From positions 15,666-79,665 of IMG/VR virus record IMGVR_UViG_3300031998_000029: a stretch of DNA of 64,000 nt, one strand, 5' to 3'. The notes under the pieces were generated by a model. That model did no database searches. It was not told where the DNA came from and saw only the letters and a list, made by a program, of their open reading frames with translations. Each line of letters opens with the position of its first letter. Position 1 is the stretch's first letter. Source of the stretch: a virus. Taxonomy: Duplodnaviria > Heunggongvirae > Uroviricota > Caudoviricetes. Positions 5,095-26,699 of this stretch are shown here, piece by piece. The position numbers and the translations under genes are program-made.

Positions 5095-5481
5095 ATGGAG
5101 AATAAGATTGTAATACGACTTCCAAACGGTTATCACCTTGTTGCGGAACAGAATTCAGATCCCAACTATCTCAACGAAATATTTATCGGGATTTTGGACG
5201 AATATGGAGTGTGGCATCAAGACCTCGCCGTCGTAAGATGTGCATACGAAATAGACGATGAATTCCGCGTTCATTGGAAAGACGAGGAATTTGACGTTCT
5301 GGTGTATTCCGACGAGAACAACGAAGATTTCACACATGACTTCACAGTCGGACTGTATCATAAAGAAGATGGCTTAAATATTTGTGGAGAACATGGTTGT
5401 GACGGTTGCTTGTATCAGCATCACAACGATATTGATATATGCAAACAGGAAGCCGCAAGAAAGAATAAAATGACTTTTTGA
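5095..5481 (+). CDS. hypothetical protein
   Basis: ORF track, 128 aa. Confidence 0.6.
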
Positions 5482-5498
5482 TAAGGAGAATATTTATA

Positions 5499-5762
5499 GT
5501 GGCGAAATGTAAAGCATGCGGAAAAGAAATGCTGTCTGCCGTTGGTTGCACGTTCAATTTAATACAGATGGCAGACGGGAAAACAATTAAACGTCATAAG
5601 GTCGGCGACGAGGGGTGGTATGACAAAGGGCAGAGATGCGGTGACTGCGGTGCTTTATATGGTCATTATCATCACCCCGGATGCGACGTGGAGCGTTGCC
5701 CCGTTTGTGGAGGTCAGCTTATTAGTTGCTTTTGTGACATAACGAGCTATGTTAGGAAGTAA
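5499..5762 (+). CDS. Zn-finger protein (multiple CxxC)
   Basis: GTG 5499 after aaggagaa; AKCKACGK...CGDCG...CPVCGG. Confidence 0.55.
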
Positions 5763-5791
5763 AACCAATATTCGATAAGAGGTTTAGAAGG

Positions 5792-6103
5792 ATGATAAAA
5801 GAATTCATAAAGAATAAGTCCAAAATCATCGTCATTTGGGCGAAATACGATGATGCCCATACATACTTTACGGGCGATATTCCGACGAGCGCGGACGCGA
5901 TTGCTTCTATTCACCGTTTCGAGTCGGTCGAATCATTTTCAATGTATTGGCGTGCAATACGCGATTGCCCGGAAGATATGTGGTATTGGGTTCTTGTTGA
6001 AGAGAACGGGTGTCAAACCTGTATCTGTTCAGGAGCTTGCGATAGCGGTGACGAGGATGTCTTTGTTGAGTGTTTCGGCGCGGGATATTTTGAAGAAACA
6101 TAA
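5792..6103 (+). CDS. hypothetical protein
   Basis: ORF track; RBS agaagg. Confidence 0.55.
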   Translation: MIKEFIKNKSKIIVIWAKYDDAHTYFTGDIPTSADAIASIHRFESVESFSMYWRAIRDCPEDMWYWVLVEENGCQTCICSGACDSGDEDVFVECFGAGYFEET

Positions 6104-7526: not shown

Positions 7527-7868
7527 ATGAGAACAGGTAATATTCAAGCTAGCTTTACAATGAGTGTACCATATGATAACCCAGATAAAAATGGTGTGTC
7601 ATATAGTTATGAAGCTATCCAGAATGCGCTTTCTTCTGTGATAGTCCCATTACCAATTATAGTTTGTCCTAATAATGGAGATTCAATGATAATTGGAAAT
7701 ACAACTTGTAAGCCATATGCAATTCAGCATAATAAAAAAGAAAACATCATCGAATTCACGGTGGATGGTGTCATATATTTCGGAGGCACGGAATGCTTCG
7801 TGAATGAGATAGACGGTAATAAGACTATTACCGATTTTGAGATTGCAAATTTTGGCTTTTCAGAATAA
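7527..7868 (+). CDS. hypothetical protein
   Basis: ORF track; RBS gaggtg. Confidence 0.5.
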   Translation: MRTGNIQASFTMSVPYDNPDKNGVSYSYEAIQNALSSVIVPLPIIVCPNNGDSMIIGNTTCKPYAIQHNKKENIIEFTVDGVIYFGGTECFVNEIDGNKTITDFEIANFGFSE

Positions 7869-12092: not shown

Positions 12093-12168
12093 CTGAACGT
12101 GGTGCAGTGGGTAGCACTCCTGATTTGGGATCAGGAAGTCGCAGGTTCAAATCCTGCCGTTCAGACCA
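12093..12168 (+). tRNA. tRNA-Pro (anticodon TGG)
   Basis: Cloverleaf by eye: acceptor ctgaacg/cgttcag, D gtgc/gcac, AC stem cctga/tcagg loop tttggga, T gcagg-ttcaaat-cctgc, encoded CCA. Confidence 0.85.
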
Positions 12169-12290
12169 CGGGCGAAGCGGTTACGCACTCTGCCCGGTCA
12201 TGGTCTCCTTTCTCTCCATAGCTCCTCCCGCCGCCGGACTTCCCGCGTGCGGGAGGGGCGCACTTATTTTCTATAAAGATAAAATTTATT

Positions 12291-12530
12291 ACCTACGATG
12301 CAGATTGATTGTTCAGATCACAACAATCGCTCTCCGCTGTCAGCGAGAGCAACAAGATGACACGGATTCGCCCTTGCCCTTCACCTCCGCGTCACTGCCG
12401 GGACGCAGGACGACCCGGCAGGGCGCGAGAGGAGAAGGCTCATACCGGCATAATCAGCGAAAACTCCATTATGGATCGTGGGACAATAAAAGTTCATACT
12501 CGGGCGGCTCGCAAGTCCCCGGGTTTTCAT
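12291..12530 (+). ncRNA. Structured ncRNA-like element copy C (homolog of 1027-1330)
   Basis: acctacgatgcagattgattgt...caatcgctctccgctgtcagcgagagcaacaagatgacacggattcgcc; long imperfect hairpin at the position of copy B's long hairpin but with different sequence (structural covariation); conserved ccggcataa[hairpin]ttatggatcgtgggacaa. Confidence 0.45.
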
Positions 12531-12605
12531 GCTGGCGTGGCTCAAAGGCAGAGCAACGCACTTGTAATGCGTAGGTTGTGGGTTCGATTCCCTCCGCCAG
12601 CTCCA
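12531..12605 (+). tRNA. tRNA-Thr (anticodon TGT)
   Basis: acceptor gctggcg/cgccagc, D gctc/gagc, AC acgca-cttgtaa-tgcgt, T-loop ttcgatt (one T-stem mismatch), CCA encoded. Confidence 0.75.
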
Positions 12606-12694
12606 TTGGCGCGGCGTAAAGGTTGGTTGCCGAGGCGAATATTTATAGCCAAAACTGTGGGAGACTGTTATTCCTGCCAAGTCGCGCCTTATTT

Positions 12695-12770
12695 GCCGAC
12701 ATAGCTCAGCAGGCAGAGCAGGCGCTTCGTAAGCGCAAGATTGCAGGTTCGATTCCTGCTGTCGGCTCCA
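12695..12770 (+). tRNA. tRNA-Thr (anticodon CGT)
   Basis: acceptor gccgaca/tgtcggc, D gctc/gagc, AC ggcgc-ttcgtaa-gcgca, T gcagg-ttcgatt-cctgc, CCA encoded. Confidence 0.8.
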
Positions 12771-12817
12771 ATTTTCAAACACACAGAAACACAAATAAAT
12801 CAGAAAGGAGAATTACA

Positions 12818-13009
12818 ATGGCTTACAGAATTGTACAAAAAGAATTTAACCCAAACACAGGCAAAAACCTCGTCGAAATCGTACTGGACAGCGATTCAGA
12901 TCTTTCGGAAGTCGGTACTGATTATTCCCCGGGCAGCATCGCGGTAGTGGCAGACTCCGGAGCTCCGTCATATATGCTGAATGCTTCAGAAGAATGGAAG
13001 GAGTTATAA
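12818..13009 (+). CDS. hypothetical small protein
   Basis: ATG 12818 after aaaggag; listed ORF 12623..13009 runs through the tRNA. Confidence 0.55.
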   Translation: MAYRIVQKEFNPNTGKNLVEIVLDSDSDLSEVGTDYSPGSIAVVADSGAPSYMLNASEEWKEL

Positions 13010-13010
13010 A

Positions 13011-13430
13011 ATGAGCGTTTTACGAGATATAGTCCGCGCAAAAATATTCGCGTCGGGCGGCGGGGGAGGCGGAAACGCCGTGCTTTCCGGCACGTTTATA
13101 GCGACTCAAAATACCGCATCGCACATAATCGAAGAGCTGATCGGATCGACTGTAACTCATTTTTTGATAACGGCCATGCCGTCACCCAGCGCAACAATCC
13201 AGTCTTCGGCACGTGCTTTCAGCGCCGGGTTTATCAACATGGAGGATACCATGAGCTTCTCTATTGGAACGAGTTCAAGCGGAACATCGGTTGCAGCCAT
13301 TAGAATAAAAGACACCGAGGATGAAAGCTTTTCGTTAGACAAGACGACGGGAGTTTTTAAGGTTGCCACGGGAACCGCCGGACTCGGGTATATTCTTGCC
13401 GGAATAACATATAAGTGGTTTGCTTGGTGA
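13011..13430 (+). CDS. hypothetical Gly/Ser/Thr-rich protein
   Basis: ATG 13011 after ggaaggag; GGGGGG tract. Confidence 0.55.
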   Translation: MSVLRDIVRAKIFASGGGGGGNAVLSGTFIATQNTASHIIEELIGSTVTHFLITAMPSPSATIQSSARAFSAGFINMEDTMSFSIGTSSSGTSVAAIRIKDTEDESFSLDKTTGVFKVATGTAGLGYILAGITYKWFAW

Positions 13431-13440
13431 GGTGGTGTAT

Positions 13441-13695
13441 ATGAGATATTATAAGACCGTTGAAAATGGATATATTACGTCTGTGGGAACAGGTCTCAGC
13501 GGGGAAGAAATCAGTATAACAGAATATAATAACCTGCTTTCCGTGATCGGCAATCGTCCACAGGACACATACGATACATGGTATCGCCTGCGTGAAGACC
13601 TTACATGGGAGTCGTATTCGGCTCCTGCGGCAGACCCCGATCCGGAAATAGACGCTTCAGAAGCGTTCGAGATTATTTTCGGAGGTGCTGAATGA
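13441..13695 (+). CDS. hypothetical protein
   Basis: ATG 13441 after gaggtgg. Confidence 0.5.
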   Translation: MRYYKTVENGYITSVGTGLSGEEISITEYNNLLSVIGNRPQDTYDTWYRLREDLTWESYSAPAADPDPEIDASEAFEIIFGGAE

Positions 13696-14114
13696 GATAC
13701 AGCCATGCTATAAAAATAAGAGATGTGATGCACAAGGCATCCGAATCTCTTTCCGATAACGATGCTTATGAAGCCATGGAGCTTATCGAAGACTGGAAGT
13801 CCGGCATTGAATACCCCGGCGAAAAACGATTAAGATACGGAAATGATCTGTATAAAACAAAGAGCGCACACCGTTCGCAGTCGGATTGGACTCCGGATAT
13901 CGCTACGTCGCTCTACGAAAAAATACCGGAACCGGGTCAGGGAGACAGCCCGAGCAGCCCAATTGCCTACAACGGCAACATGGCGCTCGAAAACGGAAAA
14001 TATTATTCTCAGTTTGAGATAACATATCTGTGTATCCGTGATACCGTAAATCCCGTATATAACAACCTCGCAGACCTTGTAGGTTTGTATGTAGAGGTAG
14101 TAAACCAAAACTAA
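13692..14114 (+). CDS. hypothetical protein
   Basis: ORF track; ATGA overlap with upstream gene. Confidence 0.55.
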   Translation: MRYSHAIKIRDVMHKASESLSDNDAYEAMELIEDWKSGIEYPGEKRLRYGNDLYKTKSAHRSQSDWTPDIATSLYEKIPEPGQGDSPSSPIAYNGNMALENGKYYSQFEITYLCIRDTVNPVYNNLADLVGLYVEVVNQN

Positions 14115-14128
14115 TAATTTAAATCATC

Positions 14129-14162
14129 CAAACCGGAGTTACAATACTCCGGTTTGTTTTTC
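14129..14162 (+). terminator. Rho-independent terminator
   Basis: aaccggagt-tacaat-actccggtt followed by tgtttttctc. Confidence 0.6.
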
Positions 14163-14171
14163 TCAAAATGA

Positions 14172-15275
14172 ATGGAAAGGAATGTCACAGTGCGAAAATT
14201 AGCAAGTATAAAGACGATCTCGGACATACTTCCGATTGAGGGCAAAGACAGGATCGTCCTGGCGCTCGTAGACGGATGGAGCGTCATTGTTAAGAAGGAC
14301 GAGTTTCAGGTCGGTGACAAGTGCGTTTATGTAGAAATAGATTCCGTAATGCCGGAGAAAGAAGAGTTCGAGTTTCTCAGGAAGGTAAACTTCAGAATTA
14401 AAACCATGAAGATGTCCGGGGTTTTATCGCAGGGTATCTGCTTCCCGTTAAGCATTCTTCCGAAGAAAGAGGACGGAGAATATGAGACAGAGGAAGATGT
14501 CACCGAAATACTCGGTATAAAGCAATATGAAAAGACGATGGATACAGAACCGCAGACAGCTCCGTGCAAGAAGGTTTCAAACAAGTATCCGCACTGGTTA
14601 ATGAGAATGGCATGGTTCAGAAAGCTGGTTCTTCCGAAGAAAAAGGCACGCGGCTTTCCGTCTTTCGTGTCCAAGACCGATGAAAGCAGGATCCAGAACA
14701 TGCCGTTCATCTTAAAAGATAAAAGAAAGTGGATTGCAACAGAAAAGATAGACGGACAAAGCGGTACTTTCTGCCTGGTCAGACATAAGTCCCGTCTGCC
14801 TTTTATAAAGGATAAGTTTGAGTACATAGTATGCTCCCGTAATTACAGAACCGACGACAAAAGCACGTCTTACTGGAAGGTATCTGACAGATATAACATC
14901 AGGGACGTTCTGGAAAAGCTGATCGGCGATAACGACTGGGTTGTGATTCAGGGCGAATGCATCGCTCCCAACGTCCAGGGCAACAAATACAAGGTCAAAG
15001 AGGCAGATCTGTATGTGTTCAATCTTATCTACCCGGACGGCAGAGTGGGATCACTTACCGCCAAGTATGCCTGTGAAGCTTTCGGTCTGAAATTTGTTCC
15101 GATAATTGAAACGGGATATATACTGCCGGATACCGTTAATGAAGTCCTTGAATATGCTCACGGACAGAGCATGATCGGAGACACCATAAGAGAGGGAATC
15201 GTGTTCAGAAGCATGGACGGCAGGCTGAGTTTCAAGGCGGTCGATCCGATTTTCCTTATGAAGTATGACGAATAA
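14172..15275 (+). CDS. ATP-dependent RNA ligase-like protein (Rnl5/DraRnl-like: N-terminal OB/tRNA-binding-like domain + nucleotidyltransferase domain)
   Basis: KxDG lysine-adenylylation motif in WIATEKIDGQSGTF; N-terminus VRKLASIKTISDILPIEGKDRIVLALVDGWSVIVKKDEFQVGDKCVYVEIDSVMP resembles OB/tRNA-binding domains. Confidence 0.6.
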   Translation: MERNVTVRKLASIKTISDILPIEGKDRIVLALVDGWSVIVKKDEFQVGDKCVYVEIDSVMPEKEEFEFLRKVNFRIKTMKMSGVLSQGICFPLSILPKKEDGEYETEEDVTEILGIKQYEKTMDTEPQTAPCKKVSNKYPHWLMRMAWFRKLVLPKKKARGFPSFVSKTDESRIQNMPFILKDKRKWIATEKIDGQSGTFCLVRHKSRLPFIKDKFEYIVCSRNYRTDDKSTSYWKVSDRYNIRDVLEKLIGDNDWVVIQGECIAPNVQGNKYKVKEADLYVFNLIYPDGRVGSLTAKYACEAFGLKFVPIIETGYILPDTVNEVLEYAHGQSMIGDTIREGIVFRSMDGRLSFKAVDPIFLMKYDE

Positions 15276-15906
15276 CGACAGTTCTATAAGCGTAAGAATT
15301 TTCGGGGTTCCGGAGAGGATGGATTGTATAAAAAAGAATCAGAAAATTCTCTCCGTTTCCGACGACCACATATTCATCGACTATGACCACGACGGCGTGA
15401 TTCCCACAGCGAAGCGTACGTGGTCAAAAGAAACGGACAAAGAGTTTACGATGGTTTTACAGGACGATATCGACCTTTGCGACAATTTTCTCAGCTATTG
15501 CAACAGGATAGTGAGAGCTCATCCTAATGAAATCATCGCTCTTTTTCCGGTTCAGTTTGTCCGACGTGTCCCGGAGAGCAGACTGCCGAAAAAGTCTCCA
15601 TATATTTCTACAAATACCTTGTCCGGATGCGGTGTCATTATGAGAACCGAATATGTTTCACCATGTTTGAATCGATGGACGGACGACAACGCTCTCGGAG
15701 ACGACACAAACATACAGAGATGGGCAAGAGAAAACAGCGTGGGCGTTCTCACCACAATACCTTCTCTCATTCAGCATATAGGAGATGTTTCGGTATTTCT
15801 GCCGGGGAGAGTTATCGGCAGAACAAAGTATTTTGAAAAAGACCCGAAGAATGTCGATTGGGATAATGGGTACGTCACACCGTGGACAAATATTATTGAA
15901 GATTGA
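15265..15906 (+). CDS. putative GT-A-like glycosyltransferase (DxD motif); function uncertain
   Basis: Solid 213 aa ORF; LQDDIDLCDNF DxD-like motif; no P-loop. Confidence 0.35.
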   Translation: MTNNDSSISVRIFGVPERMDCIKKNQKILSVSDDHIFIDYDHDGVIPTAKRTWSKETDKEFTMVLQDDIDLCDNFLSYCNRIVRAHPNEIIALFPVQFVRRVPESRLPKKSPYISTNTLSGCGVIMRTEYVSPCLNRWTDDNALGDDTNIQRWARENSVGVLTTIPSLIQHIGDVSVFLPGRVIGRTKYFEKDPKNVDWDNGYVTPWTNIIED

Positions 15907-15920
15907 GAGTGATTGAGTAT

Positions 15921-16373
15921 ATGAACAACCTGTGTTCGAAGTGCGGCAAGACAACGGCGAGGATCTATCCGGATCATACATGCCAGGGCTGCTATAATTA
16001 CTTCCATCAGGGCGGCACAGAGAATGAGCTGCCGAATAAAGGAGAGATAGTACGCGACAACCGTGGTTATGTGGTTTGTCACATATGCGGACGAGCCTAC
16101 AAACGTCTTGGTTCCCATGTCCGAGAGAGCCATGGCATGACTACGGCGGAGTACAAACAGGAATTTGGGCTCTGCAATAATGCAAAGACGACAGAGCCTG
16201 AGTATTCTCAGCATATGAGGGACTTGGCTTACGAAAACGGAATGCCGGAAAGACTGATCCGGTCTGGATACGCAACTCGCATTCGGAAGGGTGAACGCTA
16301 TAAAAGGCTTGGCAAGAAATCTCGTCTTCAGGAGTGCTTAGACCGCTCAAAAAGATATAAAAAGACGAAATAA
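15921..16373 (+). CDS. Ros/MucR-family C2H2 zinc-finger DNA-binding protein with N-terminal Zn ribbon
   Basis: CHICGRAYKRLGSHVRESHGMTTAEYKQEFGL matches the Ros/MucR signature CxxC...H...H.MTPxEYRxKWGL; N-terminal CSKCGK...CQGC. Confidence 0.6.
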   Translation: MNNLCSKCGKTTARIYPDHTCQGCYNYFHQGGTENELPNKGEIVRDNRGYVVCHICGRAYKRLGSHVRESHGMTTAEYKQEFGLCNNAKTTEPEYSQHMRDLAYENGMPERLIRSGYATRIRKGERYKRLGKKSRLQECLDRSKRYKKTK

Positions 16374-16397
16374 ATGTGAATAAAATTCGGGTTTTAT

Positions 16398-16466
16398 AAA
16401 ACGGTGGCGGAATAGGCAGACGCTTACGCCGTTAGGTTATGCGTGGTGCAAATACACGCCCGTTAA
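16398..16466 (+). ncRNA. tRNA-like element E1 (class-II-type D-arm TGGCGGAATAGGCAGACGC + T-arm-like gcgtg-gtgcaaata-cacgc + short acceptor-like stem; no anticodon arm)
   Basis: D-arm matches tRNA positions 8-26; paralog of element at 32492; lies in the 5' leader of the phosphoesterase gene. Confidence 0.35.
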
Positions 16467-16480
16467 AAAGGAGAGATAAT

Positions 16481-17236
16481 ATGATTTTCGTAACAGGCGA
16501 TTGTCACGCAGACTTCAGACGATTCTCCAAAGAGAATTTTCCTGAACAAAAAGAAATGACCAGAGACGACACGGTGATCGTGTGCGGGGATTTCGGTCTG
16601 TGGCATGATGCGCCCGGCGAGCAATGGTGGTTCAGATGGATAGAGGAAAAGCCGTTTACGCTGGTTTTTGCAGACGGCAACCATGAGAACTTCGACAGGC
16701 TGTACTCAAATGAATTCCCGGTGGTTGATTTTCACGGAGGAAAAGCTCACAAGATTCGAGAAAATCTATATCATCTGATGAGAGGATATATATTTGACTT
16801 CGAAGGCAAATCATTCTTTGTCTTCGGAGGAGCTCAGAGCCACGATATACAGGACGGAATCTTAGACAGAAGTGATTTTGAATCAGACGAAAGTTTCTTA
16901 AATACCGTTAAATCCTGGAATGAAAAAGGGAAATATTTCCGCATCAATCATATTTCGTGGTGGAAGCAGGAACTTCCCACACAGGACGAAATGGACTTCG
17001 GAATCAGCACTCTTAAGCAGCACGGCAATAAAGTTGACTTTGTAATATCCCACTGCTGTCCGCAGGAAATAGCGTCGATGAACGGGTATCACACCCCGGA
17101 CATACTGACTTCTTACTTCGATGGTATTGCAAGGCAGATCAAATTCGATAAGTGGTTTTTTGGGCACTATCATAATAACAACACAACATATTCAAAGTTC
17201 GTAATGCTGTACGAAAACATCGAAAGAATCTTATAA
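16481..17236 (+). CDS. calcineurin-like metallophosphoesterase
   Basis: ATG 16481 after aaaaggagag; motifs GDCHAD, GDFGLW, GNHE. Confidence 0.8.
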   Translation: MIFVTGDCHADFRRFSKENFPEQKEMTRDDTVIVCGDFGLWHDAPGEQWWFRWIEEKPFTLVFADGNHENFDRLYSNEFPVVDFHGGKAHKIRENLYHLMRGYIFDFEGKSFFVFGGAQSHDIQDGILDRSDFESDESFLNTVKSWNEKGKYFRINHISWWKQELPTQDEMDFGISTLKQHGNKVDFVISHCCPQEIASMNGYHTPDILTSYFDGIARQIKFDKWFFGHYHNNNTTYSKFVMLYENIERIL

Positions 17237-19139: not shown

Positions 19140-19598
19140 ATGTTACATATAATCGAGGGTGATATTTTACTTTCAGATGCAGCGGCAATTTGTCATCAGG
19201 TTAATTGTCAAAACGTGATGGGTTCTGGCGTTGCTAAAGAACTCTATATAAAATGGCCGGAGGTCAAACAAAGGTATCATGAGTTCTGCAAAGGCAAAAA
19301 TCCGTATGATTTACTTGGCAAAGTTCAAGTCGTTGAACTTGACGAGTTCCCGGCCGGCAACAAGGTTGTTATAAACATCTTCGGGCAGCTTAATTTTGGA
19401 CGTCAGAAAGTTTGTTATACCGACTATAGCGCCCTTGATGAAGCATTCCAGAACCTTAACCGCCTCTGTGCCACTAAAAAAATAGCACTTCCCTACGGAT
19501 TCGGATGCGGTCTTGCCGGTGGAAATTGGAAGACAGTTGAGCGAATAATGCTAAAGCGCCTTTGGCTGCCCGAAGTATACATATATATGAAAGAGTAG
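19140..19598 (+). CDS. Macro domain protein (ADP-ribose binding / ADP-ribosyl hydrolase-like)
   Basis: ATG 19140 after aaagggggtcaaagg; MLHIIEGDILLSDAAAICHQVNCQNVMGSGVAKEL matches the macro-domain N-terminal signature. Confidence 0.7.
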   Translation: MLHIIEGDILLSDAAAICHQVNCQNVMGSGVAKELYIKWPEVKQRYHEFCKGKNPYDLLGKVQVVELDEFPAGNKVVINIFGQLNFGRQKVCYTDYSALDEAFQNLNRLCATKKIALPYGFGCGLAGGNWKTVERIMLKRLWLPEVYIYMKE

Positions 19599-20443: not shown

Positions 20444-20486
20444 TCAATGGGTTTAAGCTAGTTTGATGAAAAACTATAGTGTACAT
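20444..20486 (+). promoter_or_regulatory. Conserved promoter-like motif (second copy of GCTCAATGGGTYT..TTTGATGA..CTATAGTGTA)
   Basis: Near-identical ~45 nt motif at 11689-11727 upstream of ORF 11796; here upstream of the iscS-like gene; TATAGT -10-like hexamer. Confidence 0.45.
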
Positions 20487-20499
20487 TTCTTTGGTGGTG

Positions 20500-21666
20500 A
20501 TGAAAATGATTTATTTAGATAACGCGGCAACGACCCAAATAGACCCGGAGGTTTTGGACGCTATGATGCCGTACCTGACCGACCAATACGGAAACGCGGG
20601 TACGCTGTACGAACTCGGCAGAAATGCTAAATCGGCAATAGACCGTGCGAGAGCGCAGGTCGCGGAGTTTGTCGGCGCCGCACCCGAACAGATAATCTTT
20701 ACTTCCGGCGGAACGGAAGCAAATAACATGGTGTTCTTTTCTCTGCGTGACTTTTTGAAAAAATCCAAAAAGACTCACATAATCTCGGCATACAACGAAC
20801 ACGACTCTGTTTTCGGAGCTGTGAGGGCGCTGTGCATGAAAGAAGATTTTTATTCTACTCTTTTACTTCCTGACTCACGAGGAGTAATCGACCCTGCGAA
20901 CCTACATAAATCCATACTCGACGACACCGGGCTTGTCTCAATAATGTATATGAACAATGAGACAGGCTCTGAAAACGACGTGTCTGAGATATCAAGGATT
21001 TGTTCGCAGAAAGATATACTATTCCATACGGACTGTGTACAGGCTGCGGGTAGCTGTGTGCTTAATGCAAAGGAAATCGGCTGTGATTTTATGTCTGTTT
21101 CTTCTCATAAAATACACGGCCCGAAGGGTGTGGGAGCTTTGTTTGTAAAGGACGCAAAGTATATCGCTCCAATGATATATGGCGGATCGGTTCAGGAATT
21201 TGGATTAAGGGGCGGAACCGAAAACGTTGCAGGAATAGTCGGATTTGGTAAGGCGTGTGAGCTCATGTCCAAACAGATCCACGAGATTGACATCCATAAC
21301 TCGGTGCTGAAGCAGCTTTTCTACTCAAATCTAAAGAACGAGCTTTCTGAGTACGGACTGGAGGACATACTGCACATCAACGGGGACACAGTGGTCAAGC
21401 ATGGGAAAACGATTAATGTCAGGTTTGACGATGTGGACGGAGAAACTCTGCTGGTGTTCCTTGACGCAAGGGGTGTCTGCGTTTCTTCGGGTTCTGCATG
21501 CAACAGCCATGAGTCCACTCCCAGTAGAGTGCTTTTATCTATGGGTATAGACCCGGAAGATGCCAGGAACTCAATCAGGGTATCGTTTTCAAAGTTCAAT
21601 ACAGAACACGAAGTGATGGAGGCTGCGGAAGTGGTCGCTTTGTGCGTAAGGATGCTGCATATATGA
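20500..21666 (+). CDS. iscS: cysteine desulfurase (NifS/IscS family, PLP-dependent class V aminotransferase)
   Basis: IYLDNAATTQ...FTSGGTEANN...SVSSHKIHGPKGVGALFV PLP-lysine motif. Confidence 0.85.
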   Translation: MKMIYLDNAATTQIDPEVLDAMMPYLTDQYGNAGTLYELGRNAKSAIDRARAQVAEFVGAAPEQIIFTSGGTEANNMVFFSLRDFLKKSKKTHIISAYNEHDSVFGAVRALCMKEDFYSTLLLPDSRGVIDPANLHKSILDDTGLVSIMYMNNETGSENDVSEISRICSQKDILFHTDCVQAAGSCVLNAKEIGCDFMSVSSHKIHGPKGVGALFVKDAKYIAPMIYGGSVQEFGLRGGTENVAGIVGFGKACELMSKQIHEIDIHNSVLKQLFYSNLKNELSEYGLEDILHINGDTVVKHGKTINVRFDDVDGETLLVFLDARGVCVSSGSACNSHESTPSRVLLSMGIDPEDARNSIRVSFSKFNTEHEVMEAAEVVALCVRMLHI

Positions 21667-25136: not shown

Positions 25137-25568
25137 TTGGACAGCAATTGCAGACACCCGAAAATAGGAGAAATCTATCTTATGCGCTTCGGCGGAAGCG
25201 GCAGCGAGCAGAGCGGATTGAGACCCGGGCTTGTTTTCCAGAACAATACGGGAAATCTCCACAGTCCGAACATAATTGCGCTGCCGCTGACAAGCGCCAT
25301 CAAAAAGACAGAGCAGCCTACCCATGTACTCATACCGTCCGACGAAACCGGGCTTCTTAAAGACAGCATTGTTCTCTGTGAAAACCCGGAAAGAATGTCT
25401 AAGGATAAGATCGGCGCTTACATAACGACGATCCCGGATAAGTATATGGGCGATGTCGCCGCAGCCAGTATAATTGCGTCTTCTGCAATTTCTTTCTTAG
25501 ATCAGGAGACACTTATAGACTTATGGCGCAAAGCGGTTTCTCTCAACGCAGTTCGAAAAACTGCGTGA
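25137..25568 (+). CDS. MazF/PemK-family toxin-like protein (CcdB/MazF fold)
   Basis: TTG start after ggaagga and a TGtTATAAT extended -10; KIGEIYLMRFGGSGSEQSGLRPGLVFQNN...IIALPLTSAIKK...VLIP matches the MazF/PemK N-terminal pattern. Confidence 0.55.
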   Translation: MDSNCRHPKIGEIYLMRFGGSGSEQSGLRPGLVFQNNTGNLHSPNIIALPLTSAIKKTEQPTHVLIPSDETGLLKDSIVLCENPERMSKDKIGAYITTIPDKYMGDVAAASIIASSAISFLDQETLIDLWRKAVSLNAVRKTA

Positions 25569-25591
25569 TACATATAAAAAGGAGGGCTGTT

Positions 25592-26539
25592 ATGTATAAT
25601 GCTGTTTTAAAAGAGGAGTTTATAAAAACCCAAACAAGTGTCTCCGTAAGAACCGCATATAAACATCTGTTTGAAGCCATAGAGAAATTTGAAAGAGAGT
25701 GGGGCGCAGATATCTGCACAAGAACGCCGGAGGAACTCAGACCGGTAATGGATGATATATTGGGTGTGACCAGATACGGCAACAGAATGAGAACCGGTCT
25801 CTTAAAAAAGTACGCTTTATGGTGTATGGAAAACAATGTCCCCGGGGCTTGCAAGGGCGTTTTTGAAGTCGATCTGTCAAACGTAAGTAAGATGCGGACA
25901 CAGACCGTTAAAAACCCCGCACACCTGCAAGCTTATCTTAACGTCCTGTTTGGCCCGGAAAAAGACGAAGGAACAGACAACGCATTAAGATGCTTTTTCT
26001 GGCTTGCCTACGGAGGATTGCTTGAAGAAGATGCCATCAAGGTAACAGCAAAAGATGTAGACCTTGTGAATATGGTGTTTAGATTCAACGGTGAAGAGTA
26101 TCCCATATACAGAGAGGCGGTACCGTGTTTTAGGAACTGTGCGACGTTGACTCAGTTTGCTTTAAAATACCGTAACGGAACCGTATATAAAGACAGATGC
26201 CTCGGAGACAGTTTGTTAAGGCGTACCTCCTTTCCAGATAAGGATATAGTAGGAATAAGATCTCAGGTTTCAAAAGCAGTCACTACAGCATATAAGTCCG
26301 GCAAAACCGATATATGTCTGAGCTACTTTAAGGCGTGGCTGTCCGGAGTGTTTTATCGGACATACATTGCCGAGAGTATGGGCATAGCTCCGGACTTTAC
26401 AAACCCGGTCGCAAAACTGATGCAGAACATATCATACTCTCTGGATAACACAAGGGCGTCCATTAGCTCGTACCGAAATTATAAGGCAAAATGGTACTTA
26501 AACGATTATGAACAATGGAAAACAACGCTGATAGTATAA
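25592..26539 (+). CDS. hypothetical protein; degenerate tyrosine-recombinase-like fold (box I Arg replaced)
   Basis: NALRCFFWLAYGGLLEEDAIKVTAKDVDL resembles integrase box I but TG-R is GG-L; no HxxR box II. Confidence 0.3.
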   Translation: MYNAVLKEEFIKTQTSVSVRTAYKHLFEAIEKFEREWGADICTRTPEELRPVMDDILGVTRYGNRMRTGLLKKYALWCMENNVPGACKGVFEVDLSNVSKMRTQTVKNPAHLQAYLNVLFGPEKDEGTDNALRCFFWLAYGGLLEEDAIKVTAKDVDLVNMVFRFNGEEYPIYREAVPCFRNCATLTQFALKYRNGTVYKDRCLGDSLLRRTSFPDKDIVGIRSQVSKAVTTAYKSGKTDICLSYFKAWLSGVFYRTYIAESMGIAPDFTNPVAKLMQNISYSLDNTRASISSYRNYKAKWYLNDYEQWKTTLIV

Positions 26540-26624: not shown

Positions 26625-26699
26625 CGGGATGTCGCCAAGCGGTAAGGCACGGGATTTTGGCTCCCGCATTCGTCGGTTCGAACCCGACCATCCCAGCCA
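26625..26699 (+). tRNA. tRNA-Gln (anticodon TTG) with C1:A72 mismatch
   Basis: Close to Firmicutes tRNA-Gln: D gcc-aagcggtaa-ggc, AC cggga-ttttggc-tcccg, T gtcgg-ttcgaac-ccgac, acceptor cgggatg/catccca, G73, CCA encoded; preceded by tataat. Confidence 0.75.

Follow-up and report, generated by a model that had tools for sequence, protein, structure and literature searches.

We analyzed a 64,000-nucleotide stretch of DNA (the window) from a Caudoviricetes genome, positions 15,666 to 79,665 of IMG/VR virus record IMGVR_UViG_3300031998_000029, in which three tRNA genes are followed by a gene for an ATP-dependent RNA ligase of the Rnl5 clade and, farther along the same strand, by a gene for a stand-alone metallophosphoesterase (MPE). 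An earlier, sequence-only reading had taken this region for an RNA repair cluster that works by the end-healing and -sealing logic of T4 Pnkp-Rnl1 and bacterial Pnkp/Hen1 and counteracts anticodon nucleases. Our preferred explanation, to which we give about an even chance, is that the ligase belongs to an accessory or counter-defense block and reseals 3′-OH/5′-phosphate nicks that need no healing, with the tRNAs acting in parallel and the MPE separately. The window is phage DNA and covers part of a phage genome. The features on which the argument turns are as follows.

12093-12168, plus strand: tRNA-Pro(TGG) (ARAGORN; Rfam RF00005, 70.4 bits)
12531-12605, plus strand: tRNA-Thr(TGT) (ARAGORN; Rfam RF00005, 69.5 bits)
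12695-12770, plus strand: tRNA-Thr(CGT) (ARAGORN; Rfam RF00005, 65.9 bits)
14129-14156, plus strand: terminator-like hairpin with an 11-bp stem and a T run after it (consensus scan only)
14172-15275, plus strand: Rnl5-clade ATP-dependent RNA ligase, 367 aa (Pfam, PHROG, PDB, TIGR02306)
15265-15906, plus strand: GT-A-like glycosyltransferase (phrog_854, 1.9e-12; Pfam Glyco_tranf_2_3, 19 bits, below the cutoff)
15921-16373, plus strand: Ros/MucR-type zinc-finger protein (PF05443 ROS_MUCR, 1.2e-11)
16481-17236, plus strand: stand-alone MPE, 251 aa (phrog_1649 metallo-phosphoesterase, 4e-41)
26625-26699, plus strand: tRNA-Gln(TTG) (ARAGORN; Rfam RF00005, 56 bits)

The ligase, the phosphoesterase, and the tRNAs

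ARAGORN and the Rfam tRNA model (RF00005; gathering score, 29) agreed at 56 to 70 bits on all four tRNAs, which had been named correctly from the sequence, and the CCA end is gene encoded in each. The ligase had been placed four kb downstream of the tRNAs, which is too far; the distance from the last preceding tRNA to the ligase start is 1.4 kb, and the replication module lies 11 kb from the ligase. The terminator-like hairpin stands just 5′ of the ligase start and parts a unit of tRNAs and small genes from the ligase unit. Within the latter, the ligase, glycosyltransferase, and MucR genes overlap or nearly abut, and the MPE gene follows after ~105 nt.

The assignment of 14172-15275 to an ATP-dependent RNA ligase with a KIDG motif was borne out. 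Pfam placed an OB domain (PF21189, PHA02142) at residues 10-93 (E=3e-30) and a nucleotidyltransferase domain (PF09414, RNA_ligase) at residues 186-357 (E=3e-18), and phrog_968 “RNA ligase” matched with an E value of 5e-74. The Naegleria gruberi RNA ligase NgrRnl (PDB 5cot) aligned over the full length of the protein (E=6e-42; residues 6-125 and 161-365), which has the KxDG-plus-OB architecture, an N-terminal OB domain and a C-terminal nucleotidyltransferase domain with no extra C-terminal module. The KIDG motif spans K192-G195, with K192 as the nucleophile. Of the proposal that the N-terminal domain is OB/tRNA-binding-like, the OB fold stands, and nothing shows tRNA binding. The open reading frame (ORF) had no match to the DNA_ligase family or the Rnl1-type family PF09511 in Pfam, its matches there and in PHROG being PF21189, PF09414, and phrog_968 alone; it thus falls in the Rnl5 family and not among DNA ligases or unrelated nucleotidyltransferases. 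The DraRnl family model TIGR02306 scored 135.5 bits, under its 151.15-bit equivalog cutoff, and based on the Pfam, PDB, and PHROG evidence we consider the protein a member of the Rnl5 family and not a strict TIGR02306 equivalog.

The NgrRnl residues in contact with ATP and with both metals were established by Unciuleac et al. (PMC7261155). Using the roles given there and the 5cot alignment, after allowing for PDB chain numbers that are shifted by one residue, we matched NgrRnl R4, D53, T145, R149, K170, D172, E227, F248, E312, and K326 to R8, D57, T169, R173, K192, D194, E262, F283, E341, and K355, respectively, of the window ligase. The sole mapped difference is at the nonessential NgrRnl K121, which is Q118 here, with K117 beside it, and most of the mapped catalytic positions are invariant in 8 phage homologues. 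Because every essential NgrRnl residue is conserved, we conclude that the gene encodes an intact RNA ligase of the Rnl5 clade rather than a DNA ligase. A basic insertion of ~27 residues (residues ~126-160, …KKVSNKYPHWLMRMAWFRKLVLPKKKARG) joins the OB domain to the nucleotidyltransferase domain; it is absent in NgrRnl, is present in variable form in the aligned Clostridia-phage homologues, and possibly represents an extra nucleic acid-binding segment. Rnl5 homologues occur in 334 cultured-phage records, many of them labeled “RNA ligase, DRB0094 family.” Rnl5 enzymes are Mn2+ dependent and seal 3′-OH/5′-PO4 nicks in duplexes, with RNA required at the 3′-OH end, and their physiological role has been called “uncharted” (PMC5397189).

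The MPE ORF opens at 16439, and the true start is most likely M15 (16481), judging from the ribosome binding site AAAGGAGAGATAATATG and the 251-aa length of the homologues. PF00149 is recorded for these homologues, with the window protein itself falling under the Pfam reporting threshold. All five metal-binding motifs are intact (G6-D7-C8-H9, G36-D37, G66-N67-H68-E69, H191, and G228-H229-Y230-H231), H191 being accompanied by H121 and H157, and across homologues (37 close, 56 diverse) they vary little or not at all. The family is large (5,635 matches among 90% clusters and 4,523 representatives at 50% identity), and nearly all of its members are stand-alone proteins of ~250 aa. The window protein is an acidic single domain with an isoelectric point (pI) of 5.4.

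A single-sequence PDB search with the MPE gave no significant match. The best PDB sequence match to a profile of 56 diverse members was Dbr1 (E=1.8e-6, mainly motifs I-III), and a Foldseek search against the PDB with the AlphaFold2 model, which has an MPE fold and a mean pLDDT of 88, was led by Dbr1, CWF19L1, and PptH, followed by the generic phosphodiesterases MPPED2, GpdQ, and Rv0805 and by ADPRibase-Mn-like 2nxf. A related gut-phage protein in BFVD carries the automatic name “RNA lariat debranching enzyme.” The hallmarks of Dbr1 are a Cys for Asp in motif I, a lariat recognition loop, and a C-terminal domain. We rejected Dbr1 orthology for the MPE, which retains the Asp of motif I (GDCH), lacks the C-terminal domain, and shares 14-19% identity with Dbr1 (TM ~0.5); Dbr1 and CWF19L1 are its nearest solved structures or profiles, with likeness at the level of the fold subgroup only. 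The phosphatase module of Pnkp belongs to the lambda-phosphatase class. Based on these profile and fold matches, the MPE is neither a PPP-type protein phosphatase nor near the lambda-phosphatase fold; a generic Ser/Thr phosphatase, the outcome that would have spoken against the earlier reading, was thus not what emerged. One relative (L104/L105) holds a stand-alone MPE together with a genuine Pnkp fusion (AAA_33, Metallophos, and RNA_lig_T4_1), indicating that the MPE is not simply a detached Pnkp phosphatase. The fusion protein is 741 aa long (L104:14959-16762 and L105:9799-11602), and L104 is a 258-kb phage contig on which a gene for a reverse transcriptase (RVT_1; L104:3225-4361) also lies, a few kilobases away from both a Thg1-like gene and the stand-alone MPE gene.

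Gene neighborhoods in related phages

We anchored loci on each of the two genes in IMG/VR and searched 10 kb on either side with hidden Markov models built from the Rnl5 and MPE families. An Rnl5-like gene lay within 10 kb in 3 of the 86 MPE-anchored loci, leaving 83 without one, and an MPE of the window family lay within 10 kb in 10 of the 80 Rnl5-anchored loci. An unrelated Band_7 gene, counted for comparison, was found in 23/86 and 14/80 loci, so the Rnl5-MPE rates are not above those of Band_7 and are explicable by shared synteny alone. With these counts we rejected a conserved two-gene module present in most genomes that have either gene. The closest ligase homologues (66-73% identity; L001, L002, and L096) are located elsewhere in related genomes and have no MPE, glycosyltransferase, or MucR gene with them.

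Counts of other neighbors of Rnl5, made by tblastn within 10 kb in the 80 viral loci, gave Thg1-like genes in 20 loci, CCA-adding enzyme in 9, RlaP in 7, RtcB in 3, and Pnkp in 3, and in 39 of the 80 loci one or more of these genes, or an MPE gene, was present. Genes for tRNA were present within 10 kb in 27 of 45 Rnl5 loci scanned, with Thr(TGT), Gln(TTG), Leu, Met, and Ile(TAT) recurring. The placement of Rnl5 amid RNA repair and tRNA genes in relatives makes a role in RNA or tRNA maintenance plausible. The MPE loci (n=86) also hold RlaP (17 loci) and Thg1-like genes (11 loci), along with RtcB genes. In one relative (L100), a single string of genes encodes RtcB, DNA ligase, methyltransferase, Band_7, YunG, Rnl5, MPE, GP88, RlaP, CCA-adding enzyme, and class-V aminotransferase; the window shares with this lineage only Rnl5 (38% identity), the MPE (69%), a Macro-domain protein (64%), and the aminotransferase. 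Phage neighborhoods of RNA repair and tRNA genes have been described before, with calcineurin-like phosphoesterases as occasional members (PMC7824862, PMC9503650), and in T5-like phages the tRNA region serves as an anti-defense island (bioRxiv 10.1101/2023.03.15.532788). Several MPE-bearing relatives have a tmRNA gene no more than 10 kb from the MPE (L023:19394-19722, L038:18935-19263, and L044:18488-18817; tag peptide, ANRQMLAVA), a further translation rescue function in this region.

The enzymes that a Pnkp-like pathway would use were looked for in the window. As had been noted from the sequence, there is no P-loop kinase: a Walker-A scan of 101 window ORFs returned only the DnaB helicase. 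Pfam scans, which covered most plus-strand ORFs of at least 100 aa and left out the remaining minus-strand ORFs, found no polynucleotide kinase, Pnkp-type HAD phosphatase, or 2H phosphoesterase in the window; the only kinase- or HAD-related matches were dNMP kinase, PhoH, and the NT5C deoxynucleotidase, all in the nucleotide metabolism module. The four largest minus-strand ORFs were compared with PHROGs. No window homologue of RtcB, Thg1-like protein, RlaP, or DNA ligase was found by tblastn with the proteins of relatives or by Pfam scans, and none of CCA-adding enzyme or Pnkp in Pfam scans, the only search made for these two. Pfam scans of window ORFs likewise matched no methyltransferase family, as sought for a Hen1 2′-O-methyltransferase partner, with ORFs under 100 aa scanned nonexhaustively.

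A structured, putative leader RNA and other genes of the window

The spacer between tRNA-Pro and tRNA-Thr(TGT) contains a structured RNA element that recurs in the window and in relatives.

12290-12487, plus strand: structured leader RNA element, at most 148 nt upstream of tRNA-Thr(TGT)
1026-1262 and 477-559: paralogous copies of the leader element
Relatives: copies at L100:165-272 and 5700-5784, L019:2188-2294 and 7700-7784, L021:1626-1720, L009:7163-7259, and others

In the element, a helix formed over a long range closes a structure that holds two conserved 5′ hairpins (one of them with GCUCUCCGCUGNCAGCGAGAG) and a long hairpin that varies. Folding z scores against shuffled controls were -6.05 for the 362-nt spacer (12169-12530) and, for the surroundings of the 1026-1262 copy (region 1006-1361), -8.26. 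A covariance model seeded with the window copies and rebuilt from 14 matches was run over 3.3 Mb of related loci and returned 44 matches with E≤0.01, 44/44 of them on the coding strand and all confined to the phage lineage nearest the window. Of the alignment cells, 96.5% were paired, compared with 34-51% in slid controls; eight pairs changed on both sides, 0 of 500 shuffles equaled the result, and the closing helix covaries in five full-length copies. The element matched no Rfam family. Exact-pattern scans of IMG/VR came back empty in one case and with one chance match in the other, and the covariance model was required to find it. A retron-like reading, based on the closing helix and variable hairpin, was put aside, as the window encodes no reverse transcriptase.

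The best copies of the leader stand 109-167 nt upstream of a tRNA, mostly Thr-TGT, and other copies stand 220-590 nt upstream of Rnl5 in L100, L019, L007, and L032. The element is possibly a promoter-proximal structured leader at the heads of accessory cassettes. By likeness to the PeSL elements of T4, it may also serve as a substrate for the shuffling of cassettes in this region. In L007, a GIY-YIG homing endonuclease-like gene (5174-6004) separates Rnl5 from the leader element, an insertion consistent with a mobile ligase cassette.

A fifth ARAGORN call, a 72-nt “tRNA-Leu(CAG)” at 1362-1433, was rejected as a tRNA gene: it scored under the Rfam gathering score and lacks U33. Its anticodon loop, GCAGACG, is flanked by CCCCC/GGGGG, a copy of the leader element lies upstream, and its appearance is that of a tRNA in decay or of a structure resembling one. 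A possible codon usage rationale for the phage tRNAs was examined within the window genes, where their cognate codons are not preferred (Pro codons, 19% CCA; Thr codons, 34% ACA and 22% ACG; Gln codons, 37% CAA). A relative on a Eubacteriales phage contig carries a tRNA with a CTA anticodon (L097:15567-15642; ARAGORN “Pyl”), an amber suppressor, which suggests stop codon recoding in part of this phage group.

That a glycosyltransferase-like gene, a Ros/MucR gene, and the MPE gene follow the ligase was confirmed by PHROG and Pfam matches, with a weak signal for the glycosyltransferase. The glycosyltransferase ORF overlaps the ligase stop by 11 nt, and its product aligns with Cluster F mycobacteriophage glycosyltransferases over 95% of its length at 21-23% identity (tblastn). 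The MucR ORF opens with TTG at 15903, and ATG 15921 is the start called on an identical public contig (L008); MucR-like proteins are nearly absent among cultured phages. As partners in a system with the ligase or the MPE these two genes were rejected, MucR being present in 1/86 MPE loci, the glycosyltransferase in 0/86, and neither near the closest ligase homologues. Other genes of the window include the following.

19140-19598 (probable start; ORF from 19086), plus strand: Macro-domain protein, DarG-like (PF01661, 1e-5; phrog_335, 5e-38)
20479-21666: class-V aminotransferase/cysteine desulfurase-like protein (PF00266, 2e-81)
25137-25568: PemK/MazF-family endoribonuclease toxin (PF02452, 8e-22)
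25523-26539: MrpR-like tyrosine recombinase, between the MazF-like gene and tRNA-Gln
Plus-strand block: DnaB-like helicase, primase, and family-A-type DNA polymerase (Pfam/PHROG scans)
Plus-strand block: NrdD, NrdG, ThyX-like protein, dUTPase, dNMP kinase, PhoH, and ClpP
Plus-strand block: ERF recombinase, PD-(D/E)XK nuclease, serine recombinase, and tyrosine recombinase
Minus strand: CI-like S24 repressor
From ~48 kb, minus strand: tail genes

The best curated match of the Macro-domain protein was the DarG ADP-ribosyl glycohydrolase domain NF048014 (1.3e-14, far under the cutoff). It is 64% identical to the Macro protein of L007, 20/86 MPE loci have a Macro gene no more than 10 kb away, and based on these matches the protein is a candidate anti-DarT or ADP-ribose-processing counter-defense factor. 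The MazF-like toxin has homologues at 63-69% identity in L032 and L096, and no antitoxin was identified; cleavage by MazF leaves 2′,3′-cyclic phosphate and 5′-OH termini, which Rnl5 cannot seal without healing. The class-V aminotransferase is conserved in this accessory region in many relatives (8/86 MPE loci and 14/80 Rnl5 loci), and our guess is that it supplies sulfur for tRNA thiolation or for Fe-S proteins.

Plus-strand genes reach ~47.6 kb. The anaerobic ribonucleotide reductase suggests an anaerobic host, and in genome collections the ligase has its nearest homologues in Clostridia metagenome-assembled genomes (MAGs), namely a Congzhengia sp., a goat colon Clostridia bacterium, and a Eubacteriales MAG, the contigs of which may be phage contigs binned into MAGs. 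A 37-kb public metagenome contig carries an identical copy of the region. The sole match in a nucleotide search against cultured phages was a 45-nt tRNA segment, and we conclude that the phage has no close cultured relative.

Possible roles of the ligase and the phosphoesterase

What the analysis establishes is which genes are present, that their active sites are intact, and how they are distributed; the substrates and biological roles given below are inferred. The region appears to lie in the variable early/accessory part of a large, temperate gut-Clostridia phage genome. Supplied with ATP and Mn2+, the ligase would, on the biochemistry of its family, form K192-AMP and reseal nicks that have an RNA 3′-OH strand in base-paired nucleic acid, such as tRNA or rRNA stems and RNA-DNA junctions. 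Metal-dependent nucleases of the Toprim, PIN, and HNH types leave 3′-OH/5′-phosphate ends, so that the ligase would need neither an end-healing enzyme nor a kinase at such breaks. The P2 OLD protein, a Toprim nuclease, nicks the anticodon stem of tRNA-Thr(U) and leaves 5′-phosphate/3′-OH ends; T4 ligases reseal a single nick of this kind with no healing step, and variant tRNA-Thr of phage origin withstands cleavage (PMC12445682). In the window tRNA-Thr(TGT), the anticodon stem (ACGCA/TGCGT) is without the P2-OLD-type CNG triplet, which, in a phage with a host other than E. coli, is a lead only. Host tRNAs would be supplemented or replaced by those of the phage, which, like the ligase but independently of it and in parallel, would keep translation going. 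The MPE would be a separate, widespread phosphodiesterase-type accessory enzyme that is only sometimes beside Rnl5, and the glycosyltransferase and MucR proteins would be unrelated passengers of the gene block.

Two points weigh against this explanation. In L002 and L096, the ligase gene is directly upstream of genes for ERF, PD-(D/E)XK nuclease, DnaB, primase, and DNA polymerase, a placement from which Rnl5 may have a role in DNA transactions. The ligase gene is also followed by the MPE gene on the same strand, within 1.5 kb, in ~4 lineages: the window itself; L007/L019/L100, with two small genes intervening; L032/L171, where the two are directly adjacent; and L128, where they overlap and the MPE is 26% identical to that of the window. 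Across these lineages, identity ranges over 26-69% for the MPE and 38-54% for the ligase. Such tight placement makes up 4 of 9 MPE-Rnl5 co-occurrences, compared with ~13% expected if positions were uniform within 20 kb, in a rough lineage count that is not phylogeny corrected. A functional link between ligase and MPE that is facultative is therefore possible.

The tight placement is an argument for a healing-sealing pair, in which the MPE would convert 2′,3′-cyclic phosphate or 3′-phosphate ends to 3′-OH and Rnl5 would seal them against anticodon nucleases, with the 5′-kinase step either supplied by another protein or unneeded. Also in its favor are the intact active site of the MPE, the RlaP (17/86), Thg1-like (11/86), and RtcB genes of the MPE loci, a ligase-like ORF, though a distant one, 0.5 kb past the MPE in L017, the occurrence of calcineurin-like phosphoesterases “occasionally” near phage RNA ligases (PMC9503650), and the precedent of bacterial Pnkp for an MPE-type 2′,3′-phosphatase (PMC3675462). 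However, with no polynucleotide kinase in the window, 5′-OH breaks would be unsealable; the MPE is acidic (pI 5.4) and, in L104, is found alongside a complete Pnkp fusion; co-occurrence of the two genes (3/86 and 10/80) does not exceed that of Band_7 (23/86 and 14/80); and Rnl5 enzymes are sealers of duplex nicks, action on anticodon loops not being known for them (PMC5397189). We consider such a pair doubtful. Still a little less probable, in our judgment, is the bolder form of the idea, that Rnl5 and the Dbr1-like MPE constitute an unrecognized two-enzyme RNA repair module of gut-Clostridia phages in which the MPE prepares nonligatable ends, the candidates being a 2′,3′-cyclic phosphate, a 3′-phosphate, or a 2′-5′ linkage.

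A function of the ligase in DNA replication, recombination, or repair, where it would seal RNA 3′-OH to 5′-phosphate DNA at retained primers or ribonucleotide patches, would account for the placement in L002 and L096. It would also fit the properties of DraRnl, which accepts DNA or RNA in the 5′-phosphate and template strands and the loss of which sensitizes Deinococcus to ionizing radiation (PMC5397189). The window has no DNA ligase gene by tblastn, and the L007 lineage has one; however, the window is a partial genome, and a DNA ligase may sit elsewhere. The 11 kb that separate the ligase from the replication module, compared with 1.4 kb from the tRNAs, and the Thg1-like, CCA-adding, RlaP, and tRNA genes that neighbor most Rnl5 loci make this function decidedly unlikely. 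We place an equally low probability on the MPE being a counter-defense phosphodiesterase, functionally unrelated to the ligase, that acts on small molecules or 2′-5′ linkages, for example, cyclic oligonucleotide or 2′-5′-linked immune signals, ADP-ribose derivatives, or branched retron msDNA. The top structural matches, the 2′-5′ phosphodiesterase Dbr1 and CWF19L1, followed by MPPED2, GpdQ, Rv0805, and 2nxf, would suit it, as would the acidic single-domain protein, the DarG-like Macro gene in 20/86 loci, the anti-defense islands in tRNA-rich regions of T5-like phages (bioRxiv 10.1101/2023.03.15.532788), and the predicted action of jumbo-phage calcineurin-like phosphodiesterases against nucleotide signals (PMC7824862). 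Nevertheless, the similarity to Dbr1 is remote (14-19% identity, TM ~0.5), and the Dbr1 hallmarks are missing (motif I is GDCH and there is no C-terminal domain).

Resealing of healing-independent nicks by Rnl5 remains our preferred explanation, and we conclude that the ligase is a further member of the known Rnl5 family in a known type of phage neighborhood. It resembles DraRnl and NgrRnl in its two-domain architecture and in all essential catalytic residues and differs from them in the ~27 extra basic linker residues, the TIGR02306 score under the cutoff, and Q118 for K121. With T4 Pnkp and Rnl1 it shares a phage-encoded ATP-dependent RNA ligase, a genome with tRNAs, and the concept of countering RNA cleavage, but the ligase is Rnl5 and not Rnl1, and the window has neither a kinase nor an RNA repair HAD 3′-phosphatase. 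The Pnkp of Clostridium thermocellum is a fusion of kinase, MPE phosphatase, and ligase. Like that bacterial Pnkp/Hen1 system, the window has an MPE-superfamily enzyme and an ATP-dependent RNA ligase in one block, but its proteins are unfused, the MPE is of another fold subgroup, and kinase and Hen1 were not found. By family membership, the analogy with these two systems fails for a locus with an Rnl5 ligase, a nick sealer of duplexes, in place of Rnl1 or Rnl4, no kinase, a stand-alone MPE nearest Dbr1, and only facultative linkage, and no finding connects the ligase with breaks in the anticodon loop in particular, as action against anticodon nucleases had supposed. Of the interpretation in the sequence-only reading, the part that survives is a plausible RNA or tRNA role of the ligase, which the tRNA and repair gene neighborhoods support; the Pnkp-like pathway as proposed is not supported. 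A further parallel is with the RNA repair/tRNA islands described by Iyer, Burroughs, and Aravind and the T5 island, where tRNAs, RNA ligases, RlaP, CCA-adding enzyme, Macro proteins, and phosphoesterases are likewise colocalized. Published surveys of phage islands stress Rnl1, Rnl2, and RtcB, in contrast to Rnl5 and a gut-Clostridia host group here, and of the wider island repertoire no more than the genes for ligase, MPE, and Macro protein are present in the window.

Rnl5 ligases are common in phages. Their presence in shuffled accessory regions together with tRNAs and with Thg1-like, CCA-adding, RlaP, RtcB, and Pnkp genes gives circumstantial support for RNA or tRNA maintenance, and the window and its relatives supply concrete enzymes to try against tRNA-targeting defense systems. 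The finding also indicates that a ligase plus a phosphoesterase is not automatically a Pnkp-like pathway, given that the MPE belongs to a different, abundant, and uncharacterized family, the substrate of which is of interest in its own right in view of its 4,523 cluster representatives. If Rnl5 and the MPE did form a module, it would provide the first defined partner and a natural substrate, a tRNA cut by a host defense nuclease, for Rnl5.

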